Source: Sandaracinaceae bacterium
Lineage (GTDB): Bacteria; Myxococcota_A; Polyangia; Polyangiales; Sandaracinaceae
Assembly: GCA_044376125.1 (NCBI GenBank)
Contig: JBILLJ010000019.1
Location: 15,621-79,620, forward strand
Direction of reading: 5' to 3'
Length of the DNA stretch: 64,000 nucleotides
Below the pieces are notes generated by a model that was not told the DNA's origin, did not search any database, and saw only the letters and a program-made list of their open reading frames with translations. The translations under genes were made by a program, and so were the position numbers. Shown here one piece after another: positions 3,181 through 62,607 of the stretch (position 1 is its first letter; every line of letters begins with the position of its first letter).

Positions 3181-3217
3181 TCAGAGCGTGCGTCACTTGC
3201 ATTGACGCACGCTCTGA
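3181..3217. repeat. REP-like perfect palindrome (15-bp arms tcagagcgtgcgtca / tgacgcacgctctga, 7-nt loop)
   Basis: Arms are exact reverse complements. Lies between convergent genes. The reverse complement matches the 17107-17143 copy at 32/37 positions. Confidence 0.85.
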
Positions 3218-7867: not shown

Positions 7868-7947
7868 GCGAGCGCCACGCGCGCGTGCCGTCACGCACGT
7901 CACGGTGTTCGAGGAGCCGACGCGCTCGATGAGGGTCGAACGTGCGG

Positions 7948-8013
7948 CGTGTCGCGTGTCGCGTGTCGCGTGTCGCGTGTCGCGTGTCGCGTGTCGCGTG
8001 TCGCGTGTCGCGT
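7948..8013. repeat. perfect heptanucleotide tandem repeat (cgtgtcg) x9 plus 3 nt
   Basis: Counted unit by unit. The array ends on the first base of the minus-strand kinase stop codon (8013-8015). Confidence 0.95.
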
Positions 8014-8999
8014 CAGGCCGCGCGGACGTCGGGGCGGGTGCGCACGCTCTCCTCGGGCGAGGTGCCGAGGCGCAGCACGGAGAGCAGCGTGCGGTCGACG
8101 GTGCGACGATCGGTGACGAGCGGCGAGAGCGCGCGGCTGATGGCGCGCATGGAGTGGAAGCGATCCTCGGGGTCACGGGCGAGCGAGCGCGCGATGACCT
8201 CGTCGAAGGCGAAGCTGAGGTCGTTGCGGACGAGCCCGGCGCGCGGGGCGTCCTCGCGGATGATGCGTCGCAGGAGGTTGGCGACGTTCGAGCCCGTGAA
8301 CGGCAGGCGGCCGGTGACGGCCTCGAACATCACGATGCCGAGACCGAACACGTCTGCGCGGGCGTCGACGTCGGGATTGCCGGAGGCCTGCTCCGGAGAG
8401 CAGTAGCTGGGCGTGCCGAAGACGCGGCCCATCTCGCGTTCGCGCTCGTCCTTGGGGGCGCGGGCGCTGGCGCAGACGCCGAAGTCGAGGAGACGAACAC
8501 GGAGCGAGCCGTCGGGCGCGCGGTCCATGAAGACGTGCTCGGGCTTGACGTCGCGGTGGACGTAGCCGTGCTGGTGCGCGGCGTGGAGGACGGTGGCGAC
8601 GCGCATCGCGATGGCGCCGACGACCTCGGGCGCCAGGACGCCGACGCGGCGCAGGACGCGCTGCAGGCACTCGCCGTGGATGCGCTCGAGGACGAGGTAG
8701 GGAGAGCCGTCGGCGCCCGGGTATCCGGAGAGGATCCCTTCGTCGAGCACCTGCACGATGGCGGGGTGGTGCACGGTGCGGGCGACCTCGCCCTCGCGGC
8801 GCAGGCGGCGCACGAGGTCCGGGTTGTCGACGAAGGTGGGGCGCAGGACCTTGACGACGACGTTCTCGCCGTCGGCGAGGCGGATGGCCTCGAACGCGAC
8901 GGCGGTGCCTCCGATGCCGAGCACCTCACCGACGCGGTAGCGTCCATCGAGGATTCGTCCGCGGATCTCTGCGCGTTCGTGCGGGACGTTGAGCTGCAT
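8013..8999 (-). CDS. Hanks-type Ser/Thr protein kinase (kinase domain only)
   Basis: Start trimmed to MQLNVPH (cat 8997-8999). GIGGTAVAF, VVKVL, HRDVKPEHVF, DFG, SPEQ motifs. Confidence 0.9.
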   Translation of the reverse strand: MQLNVPHERAEIRGRILDGRYRVGEVLGIGGTAVAFEAIRLADGENVVVKVLRPTFVDNPDLVRRLRREGEVARTVHHPAIVQVLDEGILSGYPGADGSPYLVLERIHGECLQRVLRRVGVLAPEVVGAIAMRVATVLHAAHQHGYVHRDVKPEHVFMDRAPDGSLRVRLLDFGVCASARAPKDEREREMGRVFGTPSYCSPEQASGNPDVDARADVFGLGIVMFEAVTGRLPFTGSNVANLLRRIIREDAPRAGLVRNDLSFAFDEVIARSLARDPEDRFHSMRAISRALSPLVTDRRTVDRTLLSVLRLGTSPEESVRTRPDVRAA

Positions 9000-9334
9000 C
9001 GGGGCCTCGGCCGTGTCGCGTGGGGGGCGTGTCCCGTGGGGGACGGGCCGACCGTCGGGCAGGCCGCGATCGCGGTCAAAAAAACGTCGCCCGCCAGGGG
9101 TCAGAGCATTCGTCGGGGCCTCGTGACGCGAGGGTGCGGGCGCCTTCTCCCCACGCGGCTCCCCTCGCCCCACGGAGGCTCCTCAGCGGGATCGACCGCC
9201 GACGCGCGATGGACCGCCCCCGACACGCAGCTGCGAGGACGGAACACGTCCACCCCGCTCGGCGCGCTGGCCTGCGGGGACATCTCGCCCTTCGCGTGTC
9301 GCGAGGGCATGGGGAGCTCGAGACCCGGCGAGGG

Positions 9335-10279
9335 CTACCTCACTTCCATCACTTCCATCGGCACGGGGATGCGGGGCGGAAAGGTCCCTGCGGGGAACGG
9401 ACAGAGCGCGCCGGTCTCGCGGTAGCGCGCCGAGGCGAGCTCGTAGGCCTCCATGACGCGATCGTAGGCGTCGCGGAACGCCTGCACCTCGTCGTCGGTC
9501 CCGTGCGCCCACGGCTGCGGGGACTTCTCCTCGTCGGGCGTGCGACGCGCGAGGCGGTTCGGGTCCTCCGTCGTGTGCTTGGACGGTTCGGGCAAGCGCT
9601 TCGCGCCGCGCGCGCGTCGCTCGAGCGCGACGTCGCGCTCCACGTCCTTCATGCGCTGCGCGAGCGCTTGGCGCTGCGCGCGCAGCTCGCGCTCGGACAT
9701 CTCAGCCCGATGCGGCAGCACGCTCAGCGGCACCGACGCGGTCCGCGTGAACTCGCCGCGCTCCTCACGACGCGCGCCGGCCTCGCGCCAGCTCGCCTCG
9801 TCGAACCAGTGCGCCTCGACCGAGCTGCGGCCCTCGACGATCGCCCCGTACGAGCACAGCCCCGGCCACTCGATCGCTCGCTCCACCAACCCGTGATGCA
9901 CCGACTGCTGGTGCACGTACTGCTCGATGCCCACCGCCGCCTCCACCGACAGGATCGCCTCGTCGCGGTAGCGCCCCTTGAAGAACGCGCCGTCGCGCTC
10001 GCGGTGGACGTTGAGCGTGCGAGCGATGCGGCTCTTGAGGAGCTGCATGAAGAGATCGAGCCGACAGCCGCGCACGCCGAGCAAGAGGTGCGCGTGCGTG
10101 GATAGGAAGCAGAACGCGTGGATGCGCACGCCGTACTTGGTCGCGGCCTCCTCGAGCGCGCAGGCGATCACGAACGAGGTGTACGCGTCGGGCCGCATGA
10201 GGAACGCGTCACCGACACACTTGAACGAGACGTGGATGAGGTCTTGCCCCGGAGGCAGATAGCGACGACGACGGGCCAT
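9335..10279 (-). CDS. HUH/Y1 transposase-fold protein (IS200/IS605 TnpA-like, COG1943 / REP-associated tyrosine transposase-like) with a long C-terminal extension
   Basis: Start trimmed to MARRRRYL (cat 10277-10279). HUH motif STHAHLLL. Tyr motif EQYVHQQSVHHGLVERAIEWPGLCSY, analogous to the canonical YIHxNPVxAGLV..WPWSS. Colinear paralog at 25155-26081. Confidence 0.8.
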   Translation of the reverse strand: MARRRRYLPPGQDLIHVSFKCVGDAFLMRPDAYTSFVIACALEEAATKYGVRIHAFCFLSTHAHLLLGVRGCRLDLFMQLLKSRIARTLNVHRERDGAFFKGRYRDEAILSVEAAVGIEQYVHQQSVHHGLVERAIEWPGLCSYGAIVEGRSSVEAHWFDEASWREAGARREERGEFTRTASVPLSVLPHRAEMSERELRAQRQALAQRMKDVERDVALERRARGAKRLPEPSKHTTEDPNRLARRTPDEEKSPQPWAHGTDDEVQAFRDAYDRVMEAYELASARYRETGALCPFPAGTFPPRIPVPMEVMEVR

Positions 10280-10402
10280 GGTGGACGCGTTGTCGGGCGG
10301 GCTGCCCGCGCGTTGCGTCCTCGCCACGAAAAAGAACGGGGTCAGAGCACGCCCTGGCGGCGACCGCGCGTTTCGGGCGAGGCTCGCGCTCGGAGAGCAC
10401 GG

Positions 10403-10882
10403 ATGAAGATCCTCCTGATGCGTCACGGCGACGCCGTCCGTCACGACGGCCTCGACGAAGCCCGCCACCTCAGCCGGACCGGTCGGCACGACGTCCTCGC
10501 CGTCGCCCGCGCCCTCGTACCCAAGCTCCATGGGCTCCGCATCGCGCACGTGTTGTCGAGCCACCTCGTTCGGGCCGTGCAGACCGCGGAGATCGTGTGC
10601 CACGAGCTCACCCGCGCCGGCGTCGAGGTCGACCCCATGGTCCACGCTGACCCGCGCTTCGAGCCCGATGGCTCCCCGCGCCATGCCGCACAGCGCCTCG
10701 AGCAGCTCGCGACCGAGCACGCCCCGGCGGCCATCCTCTGCGTGTGCCACGAGCCCATCGTGCGAGGGCTCGCGACACACCTCGCCCCCCGTTCTGGCGG
10801 TGCGCCCTTCGCGACCAGCGCCATCTCCCTCGTCGACGGCGGCCTCGTCGCCTGGACGCTCGACCCCCGAACGCTGCTCTGA
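10403..10882 (+). CDS. sixA: phosphohistidine phosphatase SixA (histidine phosphatase superfamily)
   Basis: MKILLMRHGDA catalytic RHG motif. About 159 aa. Colinear with E. coli SixA blocks (VLSSHLVRAVQTAE, CVCHEP, FATSAI). Confidence 0.8.
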   Translation: MKILLMRHGDAVRHDGLDEARHLSRTGRHDVLAVARALVPKLHGLRIAHVLSSHLVRAVQTAEIVCHELTRAGVEVDPMVHADPRFEPDGSPRHAAQRLEQLATEHAPAAILCVCHEPIVRGLATHLAPRSGGAPFATSAISLVDGGLVAWTLDPRTLL

Positions 10883-10886
10883 CCCC

Positions 10887-12977
10887 ATGCAGAACCCCGA
10901 CGTTCGAGCGCTTCTCGCGCGCGGCGACCACGTGGAGGCCGCGCGCTTGCTGCGCGAAGCCGGCGCCCTCCGCGAGGCGGCCGACGTCCTCGCCCAGATC
11001 TGGCGGCACGCCGAGGCCGTCGAGCTCGCCCTCGCCTCCGAACGACCGGAAGACGCCTACAAGCACGCGGTCGCCTCCAACGACGTGCGCCTCGTCGAGC
11101 GCACCATCGACAGCCTCGCGAGCAAGCCCGACGCGGCACGTCGCGCCGCCGACCTCGCCGAGGTCCGCGGTCGCATCGCCGACGCCGCGTCGCTGCGTCG
11201 CGCCGCCGGCGAGCTCCCGGAAGCCGCCGCGCTCTACGAGAAGGCCGGCGAGCTCGGCCTGGCCGCGCGCATCTACGAGCGCACGAACGATCTCCGCCGG
11301 GCCGGCATGCTCTACGAGCGCCGCCTCGCCGAGGCCCCCGACGACGCCGCGAGCGCCCTCGCGCTCGGCCGCATCCTCCTCGGCTTCGGCCGAGGGGAGC
11401 ACGCCGTCCGCGCGCTCCAGCGCGCCGTCAAGAACCCCGACGTCGAGCGCGACGCGCTGCCGTGGCTCCTGCGCGCGCTCGTCTCCCTCGGTCTGTTCGA
11501 CGCCGCCAGCGAGGTCCTCGATCGCCTCCGCGTCCACGCACCCGAGCTCCCGATCGATCCGCGCGCCGCCGCGAGTGAGCTCGCCGCCGAGGAGGCCGCG
11601 CCCCGCACGGAGACGAGCGAGCTCCTGCTCGGTCGCTACCGCGTGCTCCGCGCCCTCGGCGCCGGTGGCTCCGGTCGCGTCCTCGCGGCGGAGGATGTCT
11701 TCGCCGCACGCGAGGTCGCGGTGAAGGTGCTCAGCACCGCCGGCGGCGTCCAGGGACGCGACGCGCTCAACCGCTTCGCACGTGAAGCCCAGATCGCCGC
11801 CGCCATCGAGCACCCGAACGTGGTGCGCGTCTTCGAGTACGTGCCCGACGGCCCTCTGCTCGTCATGGAGCTCATGCCTGCGGGCACCCTCGAGGATCGA
11901 CTCTCCAAGGCCGACGAGGCCGTCGCCCTCTCACCGCTCGTCGCACAGCACGTGGCGCGCTCGATCCTCCGCGCGCTCGAGACCGTGCACCGCCGCGGCG
12001 TGATCCACCGCGACCTCAAGCCCGCGAACGTCTTCTTCGGTGCCGCGGGCGAAGTGAAGGTCGGCGACTTCGGCGTCGCCCACCTCGTCGACGCACAAGC
12101 CACGCTCACCGGCGCGATGATGGGCACCCTCGCCTTCATGGCGCCCGAGCAGATCACGGGCGATGGCCAGCCCGACGCGACCACGGATCTCTACGCGCTC
12201 GGCGTGATCCTCTACCGAATGCTCGTCGGCGCGCTGCCCTTTCCGGGGCCGGACTTCGTCGCGCAGCACCTCGGCGAGCCCGTGCCCTCGGCGAGCACGC
12301 ATGCGCCGTGGCTCGAGCCCGCGTTCGATCGCGCCCTCGAGCAGCTCCTGGCCAAGGAGAAGGAGGCGCGTCCTCGGTCCGCCACCGACGCGCTCTACCT
12401 CCTCGACTCGCTGCCCTTCGCCGCCGCCGAAGAGGCCTACCTCCGCGCGCTCGAGCGCGGCGCCCTCGAGGCTCGTCCCTCGACGCCACCCACGAGCCGC
12501 ACGTCGCGCACGAGCACGCGCCCACCGGGCGCCGCCGACGCGTCTCGCTACGTTCCACGCGAGGTCGTGATGCGCGCGGGCCTCGAGGCCCGTCTCTCTG
12601 ACGACACACTCCTGGGCCGACGCGTGCTGATCGTGCCGGCGGACGCAGCCTCGCTCGCGCACCACACCGCCCTCGCGAAGGCTGTGTCGCCGTTCCTGCA
12701 AGGGGTGCTCGCCATCGATCGCGAGGTCGGCGAGATCGTCCTCGAGGCACCGACCGGCGACACGCCGCGCGCAGCACCGCTCGAGCTGGCGCGCATGGCC
12801 GACGTCACCGAGGCGCTCGACGTGCTCGAGCAACACGGTCTGCACCACGGCGCGATCACGCTCGAGAGCATCGTCCTCGGCGAGGCACGCACGGTCTTGC
12901 TCCTTCCGCCCGCACGCGGCGAGGGTTCGATCGACGACGATCGACGCGCCGTCGCGCGCCTGTTCGGCGGCCGCTGA
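10887..12977 (+). CDS. Ser/Thr protein kinase with N-terminal TPR-like helical repeats and a C-terminal extension
   Basis: ATG at 10887, 5 nt after the sixA stop. Repeated A/L/R-rich helical pairs, then GAGGSGRVL, VAVKVL, HRDLKPANVFF, DFG, MAPEQ. Confidence 0.9.
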   Translation: MQNPDVRALLARGDHVEAARLLREAGALREAADVLAQIWRHAEAVELALASERPEDAYKHAVASNDVRLVERTIDSLASKPDAARRAADLAEVRGRIADAASLRRAAGELPEAAALYEKAGELGLAARIYERTNDLRRAGMLYERRLAEAPDDAASALALGRILLGFGRGEHAVRALQRAVKNPDVERDALPWLLRALVSLGLFDAASEVLDRLRVHAPELPIDPRAAASELAAEEAAPRTETSELLLGRYRVLRALGAGGSGRVLAAEDVFAAREVAVKVLSTAGGVQGRDALNRFAREAQIAAAIEHPNVVRVFEYVPDGPLLVMELMPAGTLEDRLSKADEAVALSPLVAQHVARSILRALETVHRRGVIHRDLKPANVFFGAAGEVKVGDFGVAHLVDAQATLTGAMMGTLAFMAPEQITGDGQPDATTDLYALGVILYRMLVGALPFPGPDFVAQHLGEPVPSASTHAPWLEPAFDRALEQLLAKEKEARPRSATDALYLLDSLPFAAAEEAYLRALERGALEARPSTPPTSRTSRTSTRPPGAADASRYVPREVVMRAGLEARLSDDTLLGRRVLIVPADAASLAHHTALAKAVSPFLQGVLAIDREVGEIVLEAPTGDTPRAAPLELARMADVTEALDVLEQHGLHHGAITLESIVLGEARTVLLLPPARGEGSIDDDRRAVARLFGGR

Positions 12978-17095: not shown

Positions 17096-17106
17096 TGGGC
17101 AGAACG

Positions 17107-17143
17107 TCAGAGCATGAGTCAGTCCAAGTGACGCACGCTCTGA
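17107..17143. repeat. REP-like palindrome, second copy (tcagagcatgagtca-gtccaag-tgacgcacgctctga), opposite orientation to 3181-3217
   Basis: 13/15 stem pairs. Right arm identical to the 3203-3217 arm. Lies between convergent genes. Confidence 0.8.
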
Positions 17144-24886: not shown

Positions 24887-25154
24887 GCGTGCCGCGGCAA
24901 CTGTCCGGGACGAAGCGCGCGGGGTCAACCGCGGCGCACCGAACACGCTCGCAGGCCCATCGTTCGGGCCGACGTCACAGCCGACGTACCGACCTCCACG
25001 TGATCGCGCTGGGGGCGTCGACACGAGCGCCGACGCAACCTGCCGAGGGGTGGCGTCCGCCAGGGGTGGCGACCGCCAGCCCGCCAGGCGAGGGCCGAAT
25101 TCCCTTCGTTTCGCACCGTCGAGGGCCGGTGCGATCCCTGCTCGAGCGTCAGGC

Positions 25155-26081
25155 ATGGCCAACAACATCGCCTGGTACCCACCCGACATCGTCTACTACG
25201 AGATCGTCATCAAGTGCGCGGGCGATCAGATGCTCATGCGCCCGGACGAGAAGACGACGTGGATCATCGCGGACGTCCTCGGCCACGTGGTGCGCAAGCA
25301 CGACATCCCGCTGTACGCGGTCGCCTGCGTGTCGACGCACGGACACCTCATCGTCGGCAGCCGTCCGGAGCTGCGTCTGGACAAGGTGCAGCAGGACCTC
25401 AAATCACAGCTCGCGAAGCGCCTCAACGTCGAGCGCGACCGGATCGGTGTCTTCTTCCAGCGCAAGAAGCCCATCCCGATCCTCTCCACCGAGGCCTTCT
25501 TCGACCGGCTCCGGTACACGCACGCCCAGCCCGTGCATCACGGCATGGTCGAGCGCGTCGAAGACTGGCCCGGGCTCTCGAGCTTTCGTGCGGTCGTCGA
25601 GGGCAAGCCCTCGATCGAGGCGAGCTGGTTCGACGAGCGCTCGTGGCGCGACGCAGGTGCCGACCCGACGCAGAAGGCGGCGTTCCTGCACGTCGCGACG
25701 GTGCCGATCACGCCGCCGCCCGAGTGGGACGGCCTCACCGACGAGCAGCTCCGATTCCAGCGCGCGGCACACGAAGAGTCCGTGCGCGACCGCGAGCGCG
25801 AGCAGGCCGCCGCCCGCGGCACGAGTGCTCCCCCGCCACCGGAGCCGAGCCACTATCGACAGGTCGATCCGTTCTCGCGTCCCGTCGGTCCGATCCAGCG
25901 TCGACCGGCACCGATCGCGCACGGATCCGCAGACGAGGTGGCCGAATACCGACGGCGGTATCGCATCGTCGTTGCGGCACACCGCGAGGCCTCGGCGCAG
26001 TATCGGGCGACCGGCAAGCTCTGTCCGTTCCCGCTGGGCACCTTCCCGCCACGCATCGAAGTCCCGTTCGAGACGGCGTAG
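25155..26081 (+). CDS. HUH/Y1 transposase-fold protein (COG1943 / RAYT-like), paralog of 9335-10279
   Basis: ATG at 25155. STHGHLIVG (HUH). LRYTHAQPVHHGMVERVEDWPGLSSF (Tyr motif). Shares the C-terminal YRxTGxLCPFPxGTFPPRIxVP with the paralog. Confidence 0.8.
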   Translation: MANNIAWYPPDIVYYEIVIKCAGDQMLMRPDEKTTWIIADVLGHVVRKHDIPLYAVACVSTHGHLIVGSRPELRLDKVQQDLKSQLAKRLNVERDRIGVFFQRKKPIPILSTEAFFDRLRYTHAQPVHHGMVERVEDWPGLSSFRAVVEGKPSIEASWFDERSWRDAGADPTQKAAFLHVATVPITPPPEWDGLTDEQLRFQRAAHEESVRDREREQAAARGTSAPPPPEPSHYRQVDPFSRPVGPIQRRPAPIAHGSADEVAEYRRRYRIVVAAHREASAQYRATGKLCPFPLGTFPPRIEVPFETA

Positions 26082-26163
26082 GACGCGCTCGGACCTCGGC
26101 TCCTCGCCTCGCGGCCCTGCGTGTGGCCCTCGAGGGGCTTGCTGCTATCGTCGGCGCCCTTCG

Positions 26164-29229: not shown

Positions 29230-31203
29230 GTGCGCAAGCCCCCGGTCGATCCGCTGATCGGCCGCACGATCGGCGGCCGCTATCGCTTGATCCAGCGGCT
29301 GGGATCGGGGGGGATGTCGAGCGTCTACCTCGCGCGACACGTGCTCATCGATCGCCTCATGGCGATCAAGACCCTGAGGCGTGACCTCGCCACCGACCCG
29401 GTGCAGCGCGACCGCTTCATCCGAGAGGCACGCGCCGTCAATCGCATCAACCACGAGAACATCGTGGAGATCTCGGACTTCCGCGAGACGGAGGACGGCC
29501 TCCTCTACCTCGTCATGGAGTACGTGCCGGGCGAATCGCTGCTCAAGGCGATGGGCGAGGGCCCGTTCCCCCCGCTGCGCGCGCTCGACATCGCAGAGCA
29601 GGCCGCGAGCGCGCTCGCACGCGCGCACCAGATGGGCGTCATCCACCGCGACCTCAAGCCCGAGAACCTCCTCCTCGTGCAGCGCCCCGACCGCCCGGAC
29701 TTCGTGAAGCTGCTCGACTTCGGCATCGCGAAGCTGATGGACCAGCCCTCGCTGACGGGCAGCCAGCAGATCTTCGGCACGCCGGGCTACATCGCGCCCG
29801 AGTACATCCAGAGCGCGAACATCGACGGCCGGAGCGACCTCTACTCGCTCGGCGTCATCCTCTACGAGATGGTCACCGGCGCGCTGCCGTTCGACTACGA
29901 GTACCCCGGCGACCTCCTCATCAAGCACGTCACCGAGCCGCCCGTGCGCCCCTCGCTGCGGCGGCCCGGCCTGCCGGCGCCCATCGAGGAGCTCGTCCTG
30001 CGCTGCCTCGAGAAGTCTCCCGAGAAGCGCTTTCGCGACGCGTTCCACTTCCTCGAAGAGCTCCGCGCCTGCCGCGAGCGCCTCGGGTCGGAGCTCGAAT
30101 GGGGTGCCCTGTCCGGCCCGAAGGTCTCCGCGCGCTCGGAGGTCGGCCCTCCCGGCAGCGGTGGCAAGCGCGCCGTGTCCTCGATGCCCACGCCCTCCGA
30201 GGACGCCAAGGGCGCGCTGCCCTCGATCCCCATCGCGCTCCCCCCCGCCGAGCTGATCACACCGCTCCGCGCGGACGCCGCCGAGGGCCGCCTCTCGATC
30301 CCGATCGAGGTGGACGCGCCCACCCCGAGCGAGGCCGCGAGCGCGGCACGCGTCACCACGCCCTCGGCACGACCGAGCGGCTCGAGCTCGCGCACGTCCA
30401 TCGAGTCGCCCGTGCCCGGCCAGAGCGGTCGGCCCATCACCGCCGACTACAACCGCCGCTCGATCCCCGTCGCGCCCGGCGACGACCTCTCCATCGACGT
30501 CGACATCGCTGACCCCGAGAGCATGCGGCCTCCGCCGATCACCGCCGGGCCGGACACCTCGAGCCCCAGCACGAGCGGCGAGCACGGCCTGGCCGGCACG
30601 CGGCGCTGGCGCGAGCGCTTCGAGAGCCTGCGCGCGTGCCTCGACGAGCTCGTCGAGATCCAGGTGCCGCCCGCAGAGATCGATCACGCGATGGCCTTCG
30701 CCGCGCGCGCGCTCGAGGAGCTGGAAGAGGCCGCGAACGCAGCCCGGCGCGAGCAGCGTGCGCTCGAGGGCGTGTCGGAGAAGGCGCGTGACTTCCGCGC
30801 GACGATCGGGCGCACGCTCGACGAGCTCGCCGCCCAGCTCTCGCACGAGAAGGGCGAGCTCGATCGGCTCACGGCGCAGCGCGTGAGGCTCGACGAGCGT
30901 CGCGCGCAGCTCCGCGGCCAAGGGCGCGAGACCGAGGCCGACGGAGTGCTCTGGGAGCTCGCCGCCGTGGACCAGGCCGTCGGTGAGAAGGCCGCCGTGC
31001 ACGAGGTCCTCGCAGGACAGGTGGCCGAGCTCCAGCAGCAGCTCGATCGCGAGAACGAGCAGCTCGAGCAGGAGATCGGTGTGCTCTCCCAGTCGCTCGA
31101 TCGCGAGATGGCTCGCCTCTGGCCCATGGCCGGCGCGCTGCGAGAGCCACTCGATCGCGTCGAGCAGTACGTGCGCGACACCTGGCAGGCCACGGGTCGC
31201 TGA
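29230..31203 (+). CDS. Hanks-type Ser/Thr protein kinase with long C-terminal coiled-coil region
   Basis: [39 protein letters not shown]-terminal heptad-like E/L/R-rich region. Confidence 0.9.
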
Positions 31204-41006: not shown

Positions 41007-41132
41007 TCGCGGATCGCCCTCTCACGGATCGCCCTGTCACGGATCGCCCGTGTCACGGATCGCCCGTGTCACGGATCGCCCGTGTCATGGATCGCCCGTG
41101 TCATGGATCGCCCGTGTCATGGATCGATGGTG
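41007..41132. repeat. 8-unit tandem array of a 15/16-bp unit (tcRYggatcgccc[t/g]Ng)
   Basis: Units counted at 41007, 41022, 41037, 41053, 41069, 41085, 41101 and 41117. The last unit contains the acylase C-terminus and stop (acc atc gat cca tga on the minus strand). Confidence 0.9.
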
Positions 41133-43747
41133 AAGGTCTCGGCGGCTCCGTCCTCGACCTCGCGCCGCTCGAAGCGGAGGCGACGGTAGCGGTGCTCGAC
41201 CCAGTCCTCGTGGAGGTTCTCGTAGAACGGATCGCCCGGCACACCGGAGACGCCGCGCGGCATCTGGAAGTAGGCCTCGGGTGTTCCGTCGTCGCGGAAG
41301 CGCGCGACCATGCGGTACACGGCGCCACCACCGACGTCGATGCGCTCGTACGGCGTCTCGCCGTCGAAGAAGCGCGAGCTCGCCACGTTCACGGTGCCGT
41401 CGCCGCCGTCGGTCGGGAGCCAGTCGTCGTCGAACGCCGGTCCGTACACCGAGCGGAAGCGGGCGCCGTGGAAGTCGGCCCAGGTGTAGCGCGACGTCTC
41501 CGTGCCGCCGAAGCGCGCCATGAGCCAGTGCGCGGTCTCCTCGAGCGCGCCCGCCGTCGTCTCCGAGCGCGTGCCGTCCCAGAACACGTCGCTCTGGGGG
41601 ATCGCGTCGCGCACGCAGAGCGACGTGAGCTTGAGCAGGTACATCGGCTCCGCTTCGAGGATCGGATCGAAGAGCGCGGAGAAGTCGTCGGCCAGGAGGT
41701 GCCGCGTGAGGAAGTAGACGTACGCGTGGAAGATCACGGCCTCGGGCGAGGTGCGCTCCATGCGGTGATCCCAGCCGCGCAGCGCCTCGACGAGCGCGTC
41801 GAGGTCCGGTCTGTCGCGGTAGCTCACGAGCGCCGCGTCCGTCGCGCGGCCGTCCCACACCGAGAGCAGCCCCGGCAGCACGTCGTCCGCGAGGAGCGAT
41901 CGCGTGTCGTCCTGCAACACCTGCATCTCCTCGAGGGTCACGTCGCCGCGCGCCGTGAGCCGCTCGAGCTCGGCCTCGATGCGCGCCGCGCGCGTGCCCG
42001 GATCGAAGAACATGCCGAAGTAGAACGGACCGTTCGTGTAGTCGCCGTCGTCGTTGAAGCCGTAGGGCTCGTTGTTCGCGGTCACGAGCCAGCCGCGCGT
42101 GCCTCCGCGGCTGTGGGGAAGCTGCATCGGCGTGAGCACGTCACCCGACCAGAACGACCGCGGGTCGTCGCCGTCGAGGATCGTCCACGGCGTGCGCTCC
42201 GCCGTGATCGGCCCGCTGCGCACCGGCACTGCGGGCGGCGAGCGATAGAGGATCCCCGTCGCGTCGGCGGCCACGAAGTTGAACGTGCCGATCTCCATGA
42301 AGCGCATCGCCGCTTCGTACTCGTCGAGATCGGTCGCGAGGTCGTAGCCCGCGAAGCCCTGCGCCTCGCGCGTCGGCGCGAAGCCGATCCAGTCGAAGAG
42401 AATGCGCTGACCGACACGCGTGATCGGAAGGGGCGCGAGATCGCTCGGGAGGATCACGCCGTGGCCCGGCACCGTCTCGATCTCCACCTCCACGGGCGCG
42501 CCACCGCGCACCAGGATCGTCTCGGTGCGCGTGACGATCGGCACGTCCTCGCCAGCGAGCGAGACCGAGTCCGCGTCGCCGCTCACGGCCCACATGTCCA
42601 TCACGTCGGGGTACGTCGTGGTGGCGGTCCACGCGACGTGGCGGTTGTGCCCGAGCTGGATGGCTGGGCTTCCGAGGAAGCTCCAGCCGATCACGTCGAG
42701 GCCGTCTTCCGCGCGTGCGCTGTGCATGTGGTGGAGCCAGAAGATGTTCGGGCTCGAGAAGCCCTGGTGCGGATCGCCCGCGATCATCGGGCGTCCGTCG
42801 ACGGTGTGGCGCCCGTCCACCGCCCAGTTGTTGCTCGCGCCGCGCGAGCCCCCGAGGCCGGGCACGTCCGCGAAGCGCGCGAAGAAGTCGCGCATGCGCT
42901 CGGCGGCGTCGGGCGGCAGCTCGCGCGGCGCGCGACGCGCCTCGGAGAGATCGCTGGGCACCTGGGGCCGCTCGCGCGCGGTGAGCGCCATCGGCCGCTC
43001 CTCGGGCGGGATCGTGTGCGCGTCGCGCAGCGGCAGAAAGAGCGGCACCGCCGCATAGAGCTCCTCGAAGTACTGCGAGAGGATGCTCGTGAGGATGTCG
43101 TACTCGATCTGGCTCGCGTTGCCGAAGAGCAGCAGCTTGGCCACCGCGAGCGCTTGATCGACGGTCCAGTCCTCGGGCACGAAGTCGAGCTCGTCCGCGC
43201 GGAAGCCGGCGGGCCGCGGCACCTCGCCGCTGCGGATCTCGGCGAGGTAGCGGTTCACGCCCGCGGCCCACGCCTCGAGGAGCACGTACTGATCGGGCGC
43301 CTCGCGCGCGAGGCTCGACGCGTTCACCGCGCCCCAGTGGCCGATCTGGAGGATCCGCATGAGCGTGTCGTCGTCGACCGAGCCCTCGCCGAGCACCTCC
43401 GCGCGCGTGCCGAGCGCACGGCGGCGCATGAGCTCCATCTGCACGAGGCGGTCGTGCGCCTGCAGGTAGCCGGACGCGAAGAAGACGTCGCCCGAGCTCT
43501 CTCCGTAGAGGTGCGGCACGCCATCGGCGTCGCGGATCACCTCGACGGCCGCGGTCGGTCCCTCGAAGCGCGGGCGACACGTCGGAGGTGTCACCTCCGC
43601 CTCGCACGGATCGCCAGCGTCGCCCTCGAAGCCACCATCGCTCGCGCTCGGCGCATCGAGGCCCGCGTCGGGCGAAGGGCTCGGATCGGAGCAGCCAGCG
43701 AGCGAGGCGAGCGCGAGCACGGCGAACGAACGCGCAGATCGAGACAT
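41117..43747 (-). CDS. penicillin/AHL acylase family (Ntn hydrolase) lipoprotein
   Basis: Start trimmed to MSRSARSFAVLALASLAGC (lipobox). GASNNWAV Ser-nucleophile site. YLQAHDRLVQMEL block. Confidence 0.9.
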   Translation of the reverse strand: MSRSARSFAVLALASLAGCSDPSPSPDAGLDAPSASDGGFEGDAGDPCEAEVTPPTCRPRFEGPTAAVEVIRDADGVPHLYGESSGDVFFASGYLQAHDRLVQMELMRRRALGTRAEVLGEGSVDDDTLMRILQIGHWGAVNASSLAREAPDQYVLLEAWAAGVNRYLAEIRSGEVPRPAGFRADELDFVPEDWTVDQALAVAKLLLFGNASQIEYDILTSILSQYFEELYAAVPLFLPLRDAHTIPPEERPMALTARERPQVPSDLSEARRAPRELPPDAAERMRDFFARFADVPGLGGSRGASNNWAVDGRHTVDGRPMIAGDPHQGFSSPNIFWLHHMHSARAEDGLDVIGWSFLGSPAIQLGHNRHVAWTATTTYPDVMDMWAVSGDADSVSLAGEDVPIVTRTETILVRGGAPVEVEIETVPGHGVILPSDLAPLPITRVGQRILFDWIGFAPTREAQGFAGYDLATDLDEYEAAMRFMEIGTFNFVAADATGILYRSPPAVPVRSGPITAERTPWTILDGDDPRSFWSGDVLTPMQLPHSRGGTRGWLVTANNEPYGFNDDGDYTNGPFYFGMFFDPGTRAARIEAELERLTARGDVTLEEMQVLQDDTRSLLADDVLPGLLSVWDGRATDAALVSYRDRPDLDALVEALRGWDHRMERTSPEAVIFHAYVYFLTRHLLADDFSALFDPILEAEPMYLLKLTSLCVRDAIPQSDVFWDGTRSETTAGALEETAHWLMARFGGTETSRYTWADFHGARFRSVYGPAFDDDWLPTDGGDGTVNVASSRFFDGETPYERIDVGGGAVYRMVARFRDDGTPEAYFQMPRGVSGVPGDPFYENLHEDWVEHRYRRLRFERREVEDGAAETFTIDP

Positions 43748-44052: not shown

Positions 44053-44229
44053 GGGCCCGCGTAAGGACAACCGGATCGGTTGCGGCCGCGTGGGGCGCGC
44101 TCGCGGCTTTCGTCCTCGGTCCTCACTGCGGCGTACCCTTGGTACGCCTCGCTCCGGGCCTGCGGGCGCGCCCGCGATCGCACTCCGTCGACGCGACCTC
44201 ACTCGGATCAGTTGTCCTTACGCGGGCCC
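44053..44229. repeat. 177-bp element bounded by 19-bp perfect inverted repeats (gggcccgcgtaaggacaac / gttgtccttacgcgggccc) with a central 8-bp hairpin
   Basis: Arms are exact reverse complements. Central ggcgtacc-ctt-ggtacgcc at 44130-44148. Lies in a 589-bp non-coding gap. Confidence 0.7.
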
Positions 44230-61677: not shown

Positions 61678-62607
61678 ATGAACAAGCTCGGTCTCGGCGT
61701 CATCGGCCTCGCGCTCGTGCTCGCCTCGTTCGCCTCCACCTCCACCGCGAGCGCCCAGTTCGTCCCGACGACCTGCGACATGAGCGACGCGAACGTCCAG
61801 TACGGCTCCATCACGCCGGGGGCGACCGTGCAGCTCGCGATGCACACGCCGTGGCGCGGGGACGCGAACTGGAGCGCGGAGATGAACCGCTTCGTGGGCA
61901 TGACCGCGGTCGTGACGAGCCTCGAGGGCGTCGACGGTGTCGGCTGCCCGGTGGTGCGCGTCAACGCCGACGGCGGTCAGTACTACTGGCGCATCCGCGA
62001 CATGCGCCTGCTCGGCGCCGCGATGCCGGCCGTGCCTCCGGGCGATCCGATCCCGCGCTACTGCGGGCTCACCGCGGCCACCGCGCAGTTCGGCGCGCTC
62101 CGCCCCGGCACCACGGTGGTGCTCGGCGCGCACACGTTCGCCGGCGCGGGCGACGACCTCAACTGGAACGCGGAGATGAACCGCTGGGTCGGCTCGCAGG
62201 CCGTGATCACGAGCCTCGATCAGGTCGATGGCTACGGCTGCCCCGTCGTGCGCGTGACCGCCGATGGCGGCCAGTACTACTGGCGCATCCGCGACATGCA
62301 GCTCGTGGGCGGCATGGGCATGGCGCCTCCGCCGCCGCCCGCGATGACGATCCCGACGTGGTGCGGCATGCCCTCGGGCGCGCCGCAGTACGGTCCGGTG
62401 CGCGTGGGCAGCTGGGTGGTCCTCGGCCAGCACACCGCCGACATCGGTGATCCGAACTGGGCGGGCGAGATGGGCCGCTGGGTCGGTCAGCAGACGACCG
62501 TCACTGGCTTCGCCGGCACCGACTCGCAGGGCTGCCCCACGGTGCGTGTCGCCGCCGACGGAGGCGCCTACGCCTGGCGCATCCGCAACATGACGTTCCT
62601 GCGCTGA
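61678..62607 (+). CDS. secreted protein built from three tandem roughly 95-aa repeats of an unassigned two-Cys domain
   Basis: Signal peptide MNKLGLGVIGLALVLASFASTSTASA. Three copies of C..QYG...G..V.L..H....D.NW..EM.R.VG....T.....D..GCP.VRV.ADGG.Y.WRIR.M. Confidence 0.75.
   Translation: MNKLGLGVIGLALVLASFASTSTASAQFVPTTCDMSDANVQYGSITPGATVQLAMHTPWRGDANWSAEMNRFVGMTAVVTSLEGVDGVGCPVVRVNADGGQYYWRIRDMRLLGAAMPAVPPGDPIPRYCGLTAATAQFGALRPGTTVVLGAHTFAGAGDDLNWNAEMNRWVGSQAVITSLDQVDGYGCPVVRVTADGGQYYWRIRDMQLVGGMGMAPPPPPAMTIPTWCGMPSGAPQYGPVRVGSWVVLGQHTADIGDPNWAGEMGRWVGQQTTVTGFAGTDSQGCPTVRVAADGGAYAWRIRNMTFLR

Follow-up and report, generated by a model that had tools for sequence, protein, structure and literature searches.

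Two diverged long-tailed Y1-HUH proteins of a Sandaracinaceae bacterium and the probable gene-plus-hairpin cassette of their family

Introduction

Are two strongly diverged copies of a transposase-like gene, lying 15 kb apart in one bacterial genome, mobile elements or enzymes taken over by the host? This question is raised by a stretch of 64,000 nucleotides (hereafter the window) from a Sandaracinaceae bacterium (Myxococcota; assembly GCA_044376125.1, contig JBILLJ010000019.1, positions 15,621 to 79,620), which has a G+C content of 71.7% and its nearest relatives among Sandaracinaceae metagenome-assembled genomes (MAGs). Its genes A and B encode proteins of the HUH/Y1 type with a long C-terminal tail. 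From the sequence alone, the original prediction had described them as a diverged pair of paralogs with a RAYT-like core and an unrecognised tail, and had regarded them as domesticated, vertically kept enzymes rather than an active insertion sequence (IS). The analysis presented here suggests that A and B have probably long resided in their lineage and belong to an unclassified branch of TnpA-Y1 proteins (IS200/RAYT/TIRYT), a branch that would travel as a gene-plus-hairpin cassette.

RAYT and TIRYT enzymes are textbook examples of transposases that have turned into long-term residents of bacterial genomes. To our knowledge, a solved structure together with biochemistry is available for only one such enzyme, TnpA-REP of Escherichia coli. 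Both IS608 TnpA and TnpA-REP are HUH Y1 enzymes that bind a cognate hairpin on single-stranded DNA (ssDNA). TnpA-Y1 proteins have been split into 12 subclasses, several of which possess C-terminal extensions (Quentin et al., 2018, PMC6006769). The name TIRYT was given to RAYT-like genes that have inverted repeats on both sides, often with the motif GGGGWSAS (Di Nocera et al., 2013, PMC3733652); such genes are equivalent to subclass 2.1 and to Bertels group 1 (PMC6006769).

The Long-Tailed Protein Family

BLASTP aligned A and B colinearly from residue 1 to ~310 (137/311 identities, 44%; 5 gaps; E 2e-84), confirming two open reading frames that correspond over their full length and encode diverged paralogs built on a RAYT-like HUH/Y1 core. 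All motifs quoted in the original prediction are present in both proteins. The HUH block (H62, H64) reads STHAHLLL in A and STHGHLIVG in B, the catalytic-tyrosine block (Y121) reads YVHQQSVHHGLVERAIEWPGLCSY and YTHAQPVHHGMVERVEDWPGLSSF, respectively, and both proteins contain a VEG..S.EA.WFDE.SWR.AG block and end in AHG...FP.GTFPPRI.VP. The start of gene A, MARRRR, is kept in its orthologs.

The Pfam model Y1_Tnp (PF01797) covers only residues ~35-125 of the two proteins, scoring A at 25.4 bits, above its cut-off of 23, and B at 21.6 bits, below it; most of the distant members of the family reach 16-23 bits or no score. Both proteins miss the NCBIfam equivalog REP_Tyr_transpos (NF047646; 49.4 bits for A and 39.1 for B against a cut-off of 80) as well as transpos_IS200 (NF033573; 12.2 and 14.8 bits for the pair against a cut-off of 55).

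With A as query, a word-indexed search returned 40 relatives, all ~310 aa long and all from Sandaracinaceae or metagenomes. In the alignment of these relatives, three of them distant (24-29% identity), the tail proved to be conserved alongside the core. A family profile was searched against 1.84 billion cluster representatives (clusters at 50% identity) and gave 30,927 matches at E<=1e-3, 8,544 at 1e-10 and 1,247 at 1e-30. Of the best 150 matches, nearly all are 300-320 aa long and align from residue 1 to ~306, indicating that the tail is the hallmark of a large family and no peculiarity of this pair. In the databases these proteins are named "REP element-mobilizing transposase RayT", "putative transposase", "transposase" or "hypothetical protein".

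Twelve positions are invariant in 66 diverse members: P30, H62, H64, Y121, W138, G140, E214, A282, F295, P296, G298 and T299. Past the tyrosine the family consensus, YALTNPV, has the signature of class 2 (RAYT-type) proteins. Members of the Sandaracinaceae clade have a glutamine in place of the asparagine of Y-x-x-x-N-P, so that the signature becomes YVHQQS in A and YTHAQP in B.

With the alignment of these 66 sequences, AlphaFold2 produced a model of A with a predicted local distance difference test score (pLDDT) of 91.6 and a predicted template modelling score (pTM) of 0.90. The modelled core matches the HUH Y1 structures 4er8, 2xm3, 2vjv and 2f4f and has the features expected of an HUH Y1 nuclease. 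Its top Foldseek match, reaching to about residue 128, is E. coli TnpA-REP (4er8_A; template modelling score, TM, 0.76; root-mean-square deviation, rmsd, 2.0 A over 152 columns), followed more loosely by the TnpA proteins of ISDra2, IS608 and IS200 (TM ~0.6, rmsd 8-10 A). A sequence-profile search of the PDB likewise had 4er8 as its sole match (residues 45-138, E 1.7e-5). The N-terminal ~150 residues are a RAYT-type HUH/tyrosine nuclease core.

The remaining ~160 residues form a family-specific module whose structure is predicted with high confidence only when the whole protein is modelled. Strands are modelled at residues 153-159 and 178-184, together with short helices and two long helices at 196-223 and 262-289. 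The model of the tail alone is weaker (pLDDT 79, pTM 0.46), which suggests that the tail packs against the core as an extension and does not form a domain of its own. Pfam searches of 25 tails at E<=10 revealed no recurring family and no Bac_DnaA_C, HTH_23 or HTH_28; PDB sequences contained no match to the tail, Foldseek against the PDB with the tail-only model gave no significant match (best E 0.82), and a fold search of BFVD with the whole model returned none. Nothing relevant was found in Rfam, PADLOC or PHROGs. The earlier description of the tail as a real, conserved and unannotated module is hence upheld, both by the separate profile scans, in which the C-terminal part has no Pfam domain, and by the predicted structure, which has no PDB relative.

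A Cassette in Related Genomes

Species genomes of GTDB were scanned with a degenerate pattern and the best 80 of 201 relatives were kept, all 80 of them in MAGs; the MAG range of the family comprises Myxococcota, Acidobacteriota / Thermoanaerobaculia, Holophagales and Bdellovibrionales. Multiple copies are present in CAZCVE (at least eight) and JAIBCE (at least five), both Sandaracinaceae, in JAFLCL (at least five), which is listed as Deltaproteobacteria and whose copies cluster with the Sandaracinaceae ones, in DASUEN of the Thermoanaerobaculia (at least eight), and in the 8.8-Mb chromosome OY970330.1 of the Thermoanaerobaculaceae (at least six). Copies of one genome are 34-100% identical, mostly 65-90%. 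For some copies the nearest relative belongs to the same genome (L012/L013 and L002/L010, identical; L006/L007, 91%; L011/L018, 90%), for others to a different one (L002/L003, 84%). The protein-identical pairs (100%; DNA 95-98%) belong to two MAGs. With at least five to at least eight copies per related MAG and such pairs among them, the family can be considered neither single-copy nor domesticated in general. Many near-identical copies throughout a genome, named in the original prediction as the mark of an ordinary active IS, are seen in a weak form and in the related MAGs only.

The A-type copies, namely gene A of the window and L001-L010 from three MAGs, lie in differing, non-syntenic contexts and share a leader and a 3' module (Table 1). 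The leader begins at about -47 with GACGCAAC and continues through CCGACAAGG to the ATG. The 3' module, starting ~30 nt past the stop codon, consists of hairpin 1, a GAGACGTGT linker, hairpin 2 and a short stretch ending in ..CGTGTTCCGTC, past which the A-type copies are no longer conserved. The 10-bp stem of hairpin 2 contains a bulged A, and its 6-nt loop is seldom the same in two copies. The ~130 nt that follow up to the terminal repeat are unconserved. A conserved hairpin within this variable segment was considered and rejected, as folding z-scores were ~0 in 10 copies with no significant folding; the whole 3' region of A, when folded, gave a z-score of -0.37. The core of the terminal repeat, ATGCTCTGACC, is fixed 226-229 nt past the stop codon in 9 of 11 aligned A-type copies, window A included, and is degenerate in L004 and L005.

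Seventeen 3' modules were aligned jointly, and their pairing was compared with 500 shuffles and with shifted registers. In this alignment 93.6% of cells pair, a value reached by 0/500 shuffles, and the shifted registers give 33-47%. Compensatory, double-sided changes were found at three pairs of hairpin 2, 40-66 (CG/GC), 48-57 (GC/AU) and 43-63, of which 40-66 and 48-57 separate two protein clades; as far as the aligned sequences tell, the hairpin stems co-vary with the protein clade. Stem sequence, bulged A and a flanking CGTGT are kept across clades that are ~42% identical in protein, with loops varying freely.

The second Sandaracinaceae clade (L011-L018) follows the same plan in altered sequence. 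Its hairpin 2 is GCCCGCCGAC-N6-GTCG(A)GCGGGC and its terminal motif GGTCTGACC, and its leader differs, consisting of CTGGCGG/CCGCCAG repeats and CGAATTCC. Copies from Thermoanaerobaculia have an analogous 3' module with a GG(A/T)GTGTGCCC-like core, a small hairpin and the terminal motif CCTGGCACCTTTT ~200 nt past the stop codon, and at some of these loci a second module stands in tandem. Modules without a gene also occur (Table 1).

Pairs of copies from the same genome delimit the unit. DNA similarity between them is confined to 1.15-1.4 kb, comprising the gene with 60-190 bp upstream and 90-290 bp downstream, and the flanks beyond are unrelated. In related genomes, the gene is present in several copies within a discrete unit of ~1.2-1.4 kb that includes the leader, the 3' hairpin pair and the terminal repeat. 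The unit of L002/L010 extends from a degenerate copy of the upstream motif through the last terminal motif. That of L012/L013 ends just past hairpin 2, where homology breaks directly after ..CTCGTGTTGG and unrelated sequence continues to the terminal motif. No evident terminal inverted repeats or target duplications were found at the L012/L013 junctions.

A side observation concerns the same two loci (9024-9170 each), which come from one MAG and are 97.7% identical to just past hairpin 2. The next ~135-145 nt are unrelated, yet both loci finish in GAGGTCTGACCT at a near-equal distance, as if hairpin 2 and the terminal motif were kept apart by an exchangeable spacer of constant length.

Metagenome contigs were also scanned for the hairpin-2 pattern. 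Of 100 stretches, 80 were examined; two contained genuine modules (L153 and L162), and the other 78 were unrelated GC-rich hairpins, many of them terminator-like. Many unrelated bacteria among L100-L179 have the motif CCCCGC-GGC-N6-GCCGAGCGGGG, often with a T-run behind it; it appears to serve as an intrinsic terminator and contains the same bulged A as hairpin 2. A promoter and terminator scan around A detected nothing at the hairpins, and hairpin 2 is not followed by a T-run.

Loci A and B in the Window

Copy A keeps the whole cassette, including leader, double hairpin and terminal repeat. The 12-mer GGGGTCAGAGCA occurs three times in the 64 kb, each time less than 600 bp from gene A. Two occurrences have the same orientation and bracket the gene, and the third is inverted. 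At all three (9097 and 10338, direct; 10875-10886, inverted), GGGGTCAG fits the TIRtron motif GGGGWSAS, a fit that applies to A and not to B. The 9-mer core GGTCAGAGC is clustered near A-type genes, and the same loci also have a few copies at a distance of 0.5-8 kb; single copies were seen in six unrelated loci and none in loci of the second clade. Copy A does carry IS/TIRtron-like cis elements. That A and B share no terminal structure with one another remains correct, but each copy shares non-coding elements with its own relatives elsewhere.

Copy B, which ends 82 nt upstream of era, presents a different picture. Alignment of the B-era spacer disclosed no double-hairpin module, and of the cassette B keeps only the 5' leader. 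In a variant with an identical B protein (L098:4627-4678, JGI 3300035663), a deletion of ~30 nt in the spacer removes the CGTGTG-hairpin remnant, indicating that the remnant appears dispensable. The other Sandaracinaceae copies are each 40-47% identical to B, which therefore represents a lineage of its own, with closest relatives at 78%, 69% and 55% identity.

Both genes have stayed where they are for some time. Eleven metagenome contigs carry the exact A protein, in every case flanked by the SixA-like gene and a 328-aa kinase. The SixA-like / A / kinase arrangement recurs around an ortholog with 80% identity (P0003, L086), whose neighbours are 83-93% identical in nucleotides. L086 retains all three 12-mers together with hairpin 2; its hairpin 1 and remaining 3' sequence have diverged, and it has an insertion of ~80 nt past the stop codon. 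The exact B protein was found on 22 contigs, always upstream of era-der, and in its ortholog (78% identical) leader, gene, spacer and era are colinear at 81% nucleotide identity. The ratio of nonsynonymous to synonymous substitution rates (dN/dS; Nei-Gojobori) of gene A was 0.21, with 0.10 in the core and 0.36 in the tail; that of gene B was 0.19, with 0.19 in the core and 0.20 in the tail, and that of the neighbouring kinase 0.017. Shared synteny with the orthologs and dN/dS values of ~0.2 indicate that A and B are maintained as proteins and have not moved since the split from the sister lineage. Short-range vertical inheritance, as originally proposed, is accordingly confirmed for both copies.

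At greater distance the picture changes. Comparison of the neighbours of A and B with 78 loci of GTDB genomes gave only paralogous kinase matches and no era/der match, and the SixA-like gene had no match in these loci, indicating that synteny is absent at 65-72% identity. Of the description "domesticated, vertically kept", short-range vertical descent stands, accompanied by purifying selection, but domestication is not supported for the family, which is multi-copy in related MAGs, and A has kept its cis elements.

Gene A sits between two Ser/Thr kinase paralogs and a SixA-like histidine phosphatase gene (10403-10882). Ser/Thr kinase paralogs of the window are found at 8013-8999, 10889-12977, ~29600-29900 and ~2050-2320. 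The SixA-like gene was considered as cargo within a pair of terminal inverted repeats (10875-10886 and 9097-9108), and this was rejected, since no other A-type locus has a SixA-like neighbour. At 7941-8017, ~11 tandem CGTGTCG heptamers end at the 3' terminus (stop codon) of the Ser/Thr kinase gene located after A. Two intergenic self-complementary palindromes of ~37 nt, 90% alike (TCAGAGCGTGCGTCA - loop - TGACGCACGCTCTGA), lie at 3181-3217 and 17105-17143. The core GTCAGAGC is present both in their arms and in the A-type repeat GGGGTCAGAGCA, and the palindromes could be relatives of this repeat resembling repetitive extragenic palindromes (REPs) or REP doublets (REPINs).

Table 1. Coordinates of genes A and B, their motifs and the associated non-coding elements. 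Positions are those of the window unless a locus number is given.
Feature	Position	Strand	Remarks
Gene A	9335-10279	(-)	314 aa; long-tailed Y1-HUH (RAYT/TIRYT-like) protein
HUH motif of A (H62-A-H64)	10088-10096	(-)	invariant in the family
Catalytic tyrosine Y121 of A (YVHQQ)	9917-9919	(-)	invariant in the family
C-terminal module of A, residues 150-314	9338-9832	(-)	FPxGT invariant near the end
5' leader of A-type copies, GACGCAAC ... CCGACAA(G/C)G ... ATG	10280-10319	(-)	alignment of 9 copies from differing contexts
3' hairpin 1, CCCTCGCG-ACA-CGCGAAGGG	9288-9307	(-)	89.8% of cells paired
3' hairpin 2, CCCCGCAGGC-N6-GCCG(A)GCGGGG	9253-9279	(-)	96.5% of cells paired
Conserved stretch past hairpin 2 (..ACGTGTTCCGTC)	9238-9252	(-)	A-type sequence conservation ends here
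Terminal repeat GGGGTCAGAGCA (TGCTCTGACCCC on gene strand)	9097-9108	(+)	
Second copy of GGGGTCAGAGCA	10338-10349	(+)	58 nt upstream of the ATG of A; direct to the terminal copy; kept in L086
Third copy of GGGGTCAGAGCA	10875-10886	(-)	inverted; overlaps the stop codon of the SixA-like gene; kept in L086
Gene B	25155-26081	(+)	308 aa; paralog of A; HGH 25338-25346; Y121 25515-25517
B leader: three CCGCCAG repeats, CGAATTCC, CCGG..TGC	25047-25150	(+)	common to L011-L017 and the B ortholog
B-era spacer	26082-26163	(+)	GCTCGGACC at 26087-26095; CGTGTG-GCCC-TCGA-GGGGC remnant at 26120-26139
Gene-less 3' modules	L009:11894-11963; L006:9213-9333; L006:10512-10665		

Comparison with Described TnpA-Y1 Enzymes

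For comparison with TIRYTs, 15 sequences were rebuilt from the supplementary alignment of PMC3733652. hhalign of the 66-sequence family against them gave a probability of 99.4% and E 7.8e-22 over residues 1-153 only, with the tails unaligned, and in BLASTP protein A matched TIRYTs at E 6e-13 to 1e-5 and the E. coli RAYT at E 0.06. The present branch is probably sister to the TIRYT / subclass 2.1 group. Shared features include the M-x-R-x-x-R..PG start, (S/N)-H-x-H, the NPV..LV..W..SS stretch past the tyrosine, and a low-to-moderate number of diverged copies per genome; moreover, as in TIRtrons, the A-type gene is flanked by repeats fitting GGGGWSAS, one of them inverted. In contrast to TIRYTs, the proteins are ~305 aa long instead of a median of 238, and their own ~160-aa tail does not align with the TIRYT tail, which resembles a DnaA_C / helix-turn-helix (HTH) fold. 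The Sandaracinaceae clade has Y-x-x-x-Q, not Y-x-x-x-NP, and a conserved 3' double hairpin is present here, whereas subclass 2.1 has been described without REP-like structures.

E. coli TnpA-REP (4er8) of subclass 2.2 is the top structural match of the core and its top PDB profile match, and RAYTs resemble the present family in being associated with cognate hairpin-forming repeats and in their short-range vertical inheritance. However, RAYTs are ~165 aa long, typically single copy and flanked by abundant GTAG-tagged REPs, whereas this family has a large extra tail and several copies in related genomes. No GTAG-tagged REPs were found in the window, where the flanking repeats are the three copies of GGGGTCAGAGCA, all at gene A. 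With the TnpA proteins of IS200/IS605 elements (IS608, ISDra2; subclass 1.1) the family has in common the HUH/Y1 chemistry, a compact unit, hairpins near the ends and, judging by the L012/L013 junctions, a lack of evident terminal inverted repeats or target duplications, but those enzymes are 130-150 aa long and consist of the core only, often accompany tnpB, and have near-identical copies in a genome, with ~99% identity in subclass 1.1 (Table 1 of PMC6006769).

Subclass 2.3, known from Chromatiales / Alteromonadales, has a median length of 325 aa, 3.9 copies at 75% identity, two core insertions (10 and 55 aa) and the motif YVDLNP (PMC6006769). As judged from this published description, it resembles the present family in its long protein, several diverged copies, two-part C-terminal tail and lack of a classical REP, and differs in that the core is uninterrupted here and the taxonomic range is another one. 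Membership in subclass 2.3 or in class 3 was rejected on the basis of the published table, with which motifs, insertions, lengths and taxa disagree. No published subclass fits length, motifs, insertions and taxa together, 2.3 and class 3 being compared by description, and a full-text literature search retrieved no paper describing a ~300-aa branch of this kind.

Proposed Mechanism and Alternative Explanations

Taken as long-resident members of a cassette-borne TnpA-Y1 branch, A and B may be pictured as follows. By analogy with IS608 TnpA and TnpA-REP, the enzyme would bind its cognate bulged hairpin on ssDNA. Cutting and rejoining would take place a few nt 3' of hairpin 2 through a 5'-phosphotyrosine at Y121, with a metal presumably held by H62, H64 and Q125; this position of the cut is suggested because the homology of L012/L013 and the A-type conservation both end just past hairpin 2. 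The cassette and its gene-less derivatives would be moved or copied at low frequency, and the tail might, at a guess, add DNA contacts or oligomerisation. Judged by its complete set of elements, copy A is potentially competent in cis. Copy B, having lost its 3' module, would act in trans only or have been co-opted. With its low copy number, slow turnover and gene-less derivative modules, the system appears to stand midway between an IS and a domesticated RAYT.

Several observations weigh against this picture. The right-hand boundary of the unit differs between the two best copy pairs, L002/L010 and L012/L013, and no pair of filled and empty sites was found, so that exact ends and target are unproven. 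Some of the identical MAG pairs could reflect redundancy of assembly or binning. A third copy was not detected by tblastn in the 64-kb window, the extent that this copy count covers, and tblastn searches of 72,556 plasmids with A and with one distant member gave no family match. A large REP-like population of dispersed hairpin modules is not supported by the metagenome scan, and hairpin 2 resembles GC-rich terminator hairpins common in unrelated bacteria.

It is less likely that A and B are fully domesticated, immobile enzymes that process ssDNA for the host, for instance near era/der or in kinase signalling, and that their flanking repeats are relics or regulatory sites. Such a role would agree with the synteny shared with orthologs at 78-80% protein identity, whose neighbours are 81-93% identical in nucleotides, with loci fixed on 11 (A) and 22 (B) contigs from many samples, and with dN/dS of ~0.2, tails included. 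It would also agree with the state of B, which is without a 3' module and whose remnant is deleted in a variant, and with the 44% identity of the paralogs, indicating an old duplication. Nevertheless, synteny is gone in the next-closest MAGs at 65-72% identity, and these have several copies in differing contexts with discrete unit ends. Gene-less 3' modules exist, and in the A ortholog hairpin 2 and the three 12-mers are kept while the intervening sequence has diverged, suggesting that the cis sites are still under selection.

The 3' hairpins might instead be a terminator or an mRNA-stabilising 3' untranslated region that travels with the gene and is no recognition site of the enzyme. This is improbable, even though the hairpins stand directly past the stop codon and the hairpin-2 pattern recurs, T-tailed and terminator-like, in many unrelated bacteria: there is no T-run past hairpin 2 and the terminator scan is empty there, solo modules occur away from gene ends, and stem, bulged A and CGTGT are kept across clades of ~42% identity in which the loops are free.

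An ordinary active IS200/IS605 element with a merely longer transposase would suit the HUH/Y1 core, the Y-x-x-x-Q of the Sandaracinaceae clade (YVHQQ / YTHAQ), the compact unit of ~1.2-1.3 kb with subterminal hairpins and the protein-identical pairs (DNA 95-98%) of two MAGs, but is very unlikely, given that same-genome copies are mostly 65-90% identical against ~99% for IS200 subclass 1.1 (PMC6006769), that transpos_IS200 reaches 12-15 bits against a cut-off of 55, that the core is nearer to TIRYT/RAYT than to IS200, that tnpB is absent, that most family members have the class 2 signature Y-x-x-x-NP (YALTNPV), and that both window copies have remained in place across speciation-scale divergence.

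Other Repeats in the Window

Three further repeat structures were observed elsewhere in the window. At 41016-41142, ~8 tandem units of 16 nt (GTCACGGATCGCCCGT-like) are 91-96% identical in the middle of the array. A 39-nt inverted repeat (GGGCCCGCGTAAGGACAACCGGATC...), 79% complementary, has its arms at 44053-44091 and 44191-44229, 99 nt apart, and could be a structured element or a small miniature inverted-repeat transposable element. Three direct repeats of ~162 nt at 61856-62605, spaced at 294 nt with 64-77% identity, are probably a repeated protein domain.

Significance

Tentatively, and with somewhat more doubt than assent, the findings may be read as describing a wide, previously unrecognised Y1-HUH subclass with a novel ~160-aa tail, a co-evolving cassette and gene-less modules, in which B represents domestication in progress. 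No current idea would be overturned, as extended C-termini of TnpA-Y1 proteins have already been documented (PMC6006769). The set of ssDNA enzymes is large, belongs mostly to uncultured soil and sediment lineages, and has members that standard models barely detect. In these proteins a new module appears grafted on the HUH core, for which DNA recognition, oligomerisation and regulation are candidate roles. A candidate hairpin that co-varies with the clade makes sequence-specific ssDNA cutting and joining testable and could provide HUH-tag or ssDNA tools. If the reading of B is true, this copy would be a snapshot of an element stripped of its cis elements and parked before era, still under purifying selection. 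Standing 15 kb apart, the intact A and the stripped B would offer a natural comparison for the fixation of such elements.

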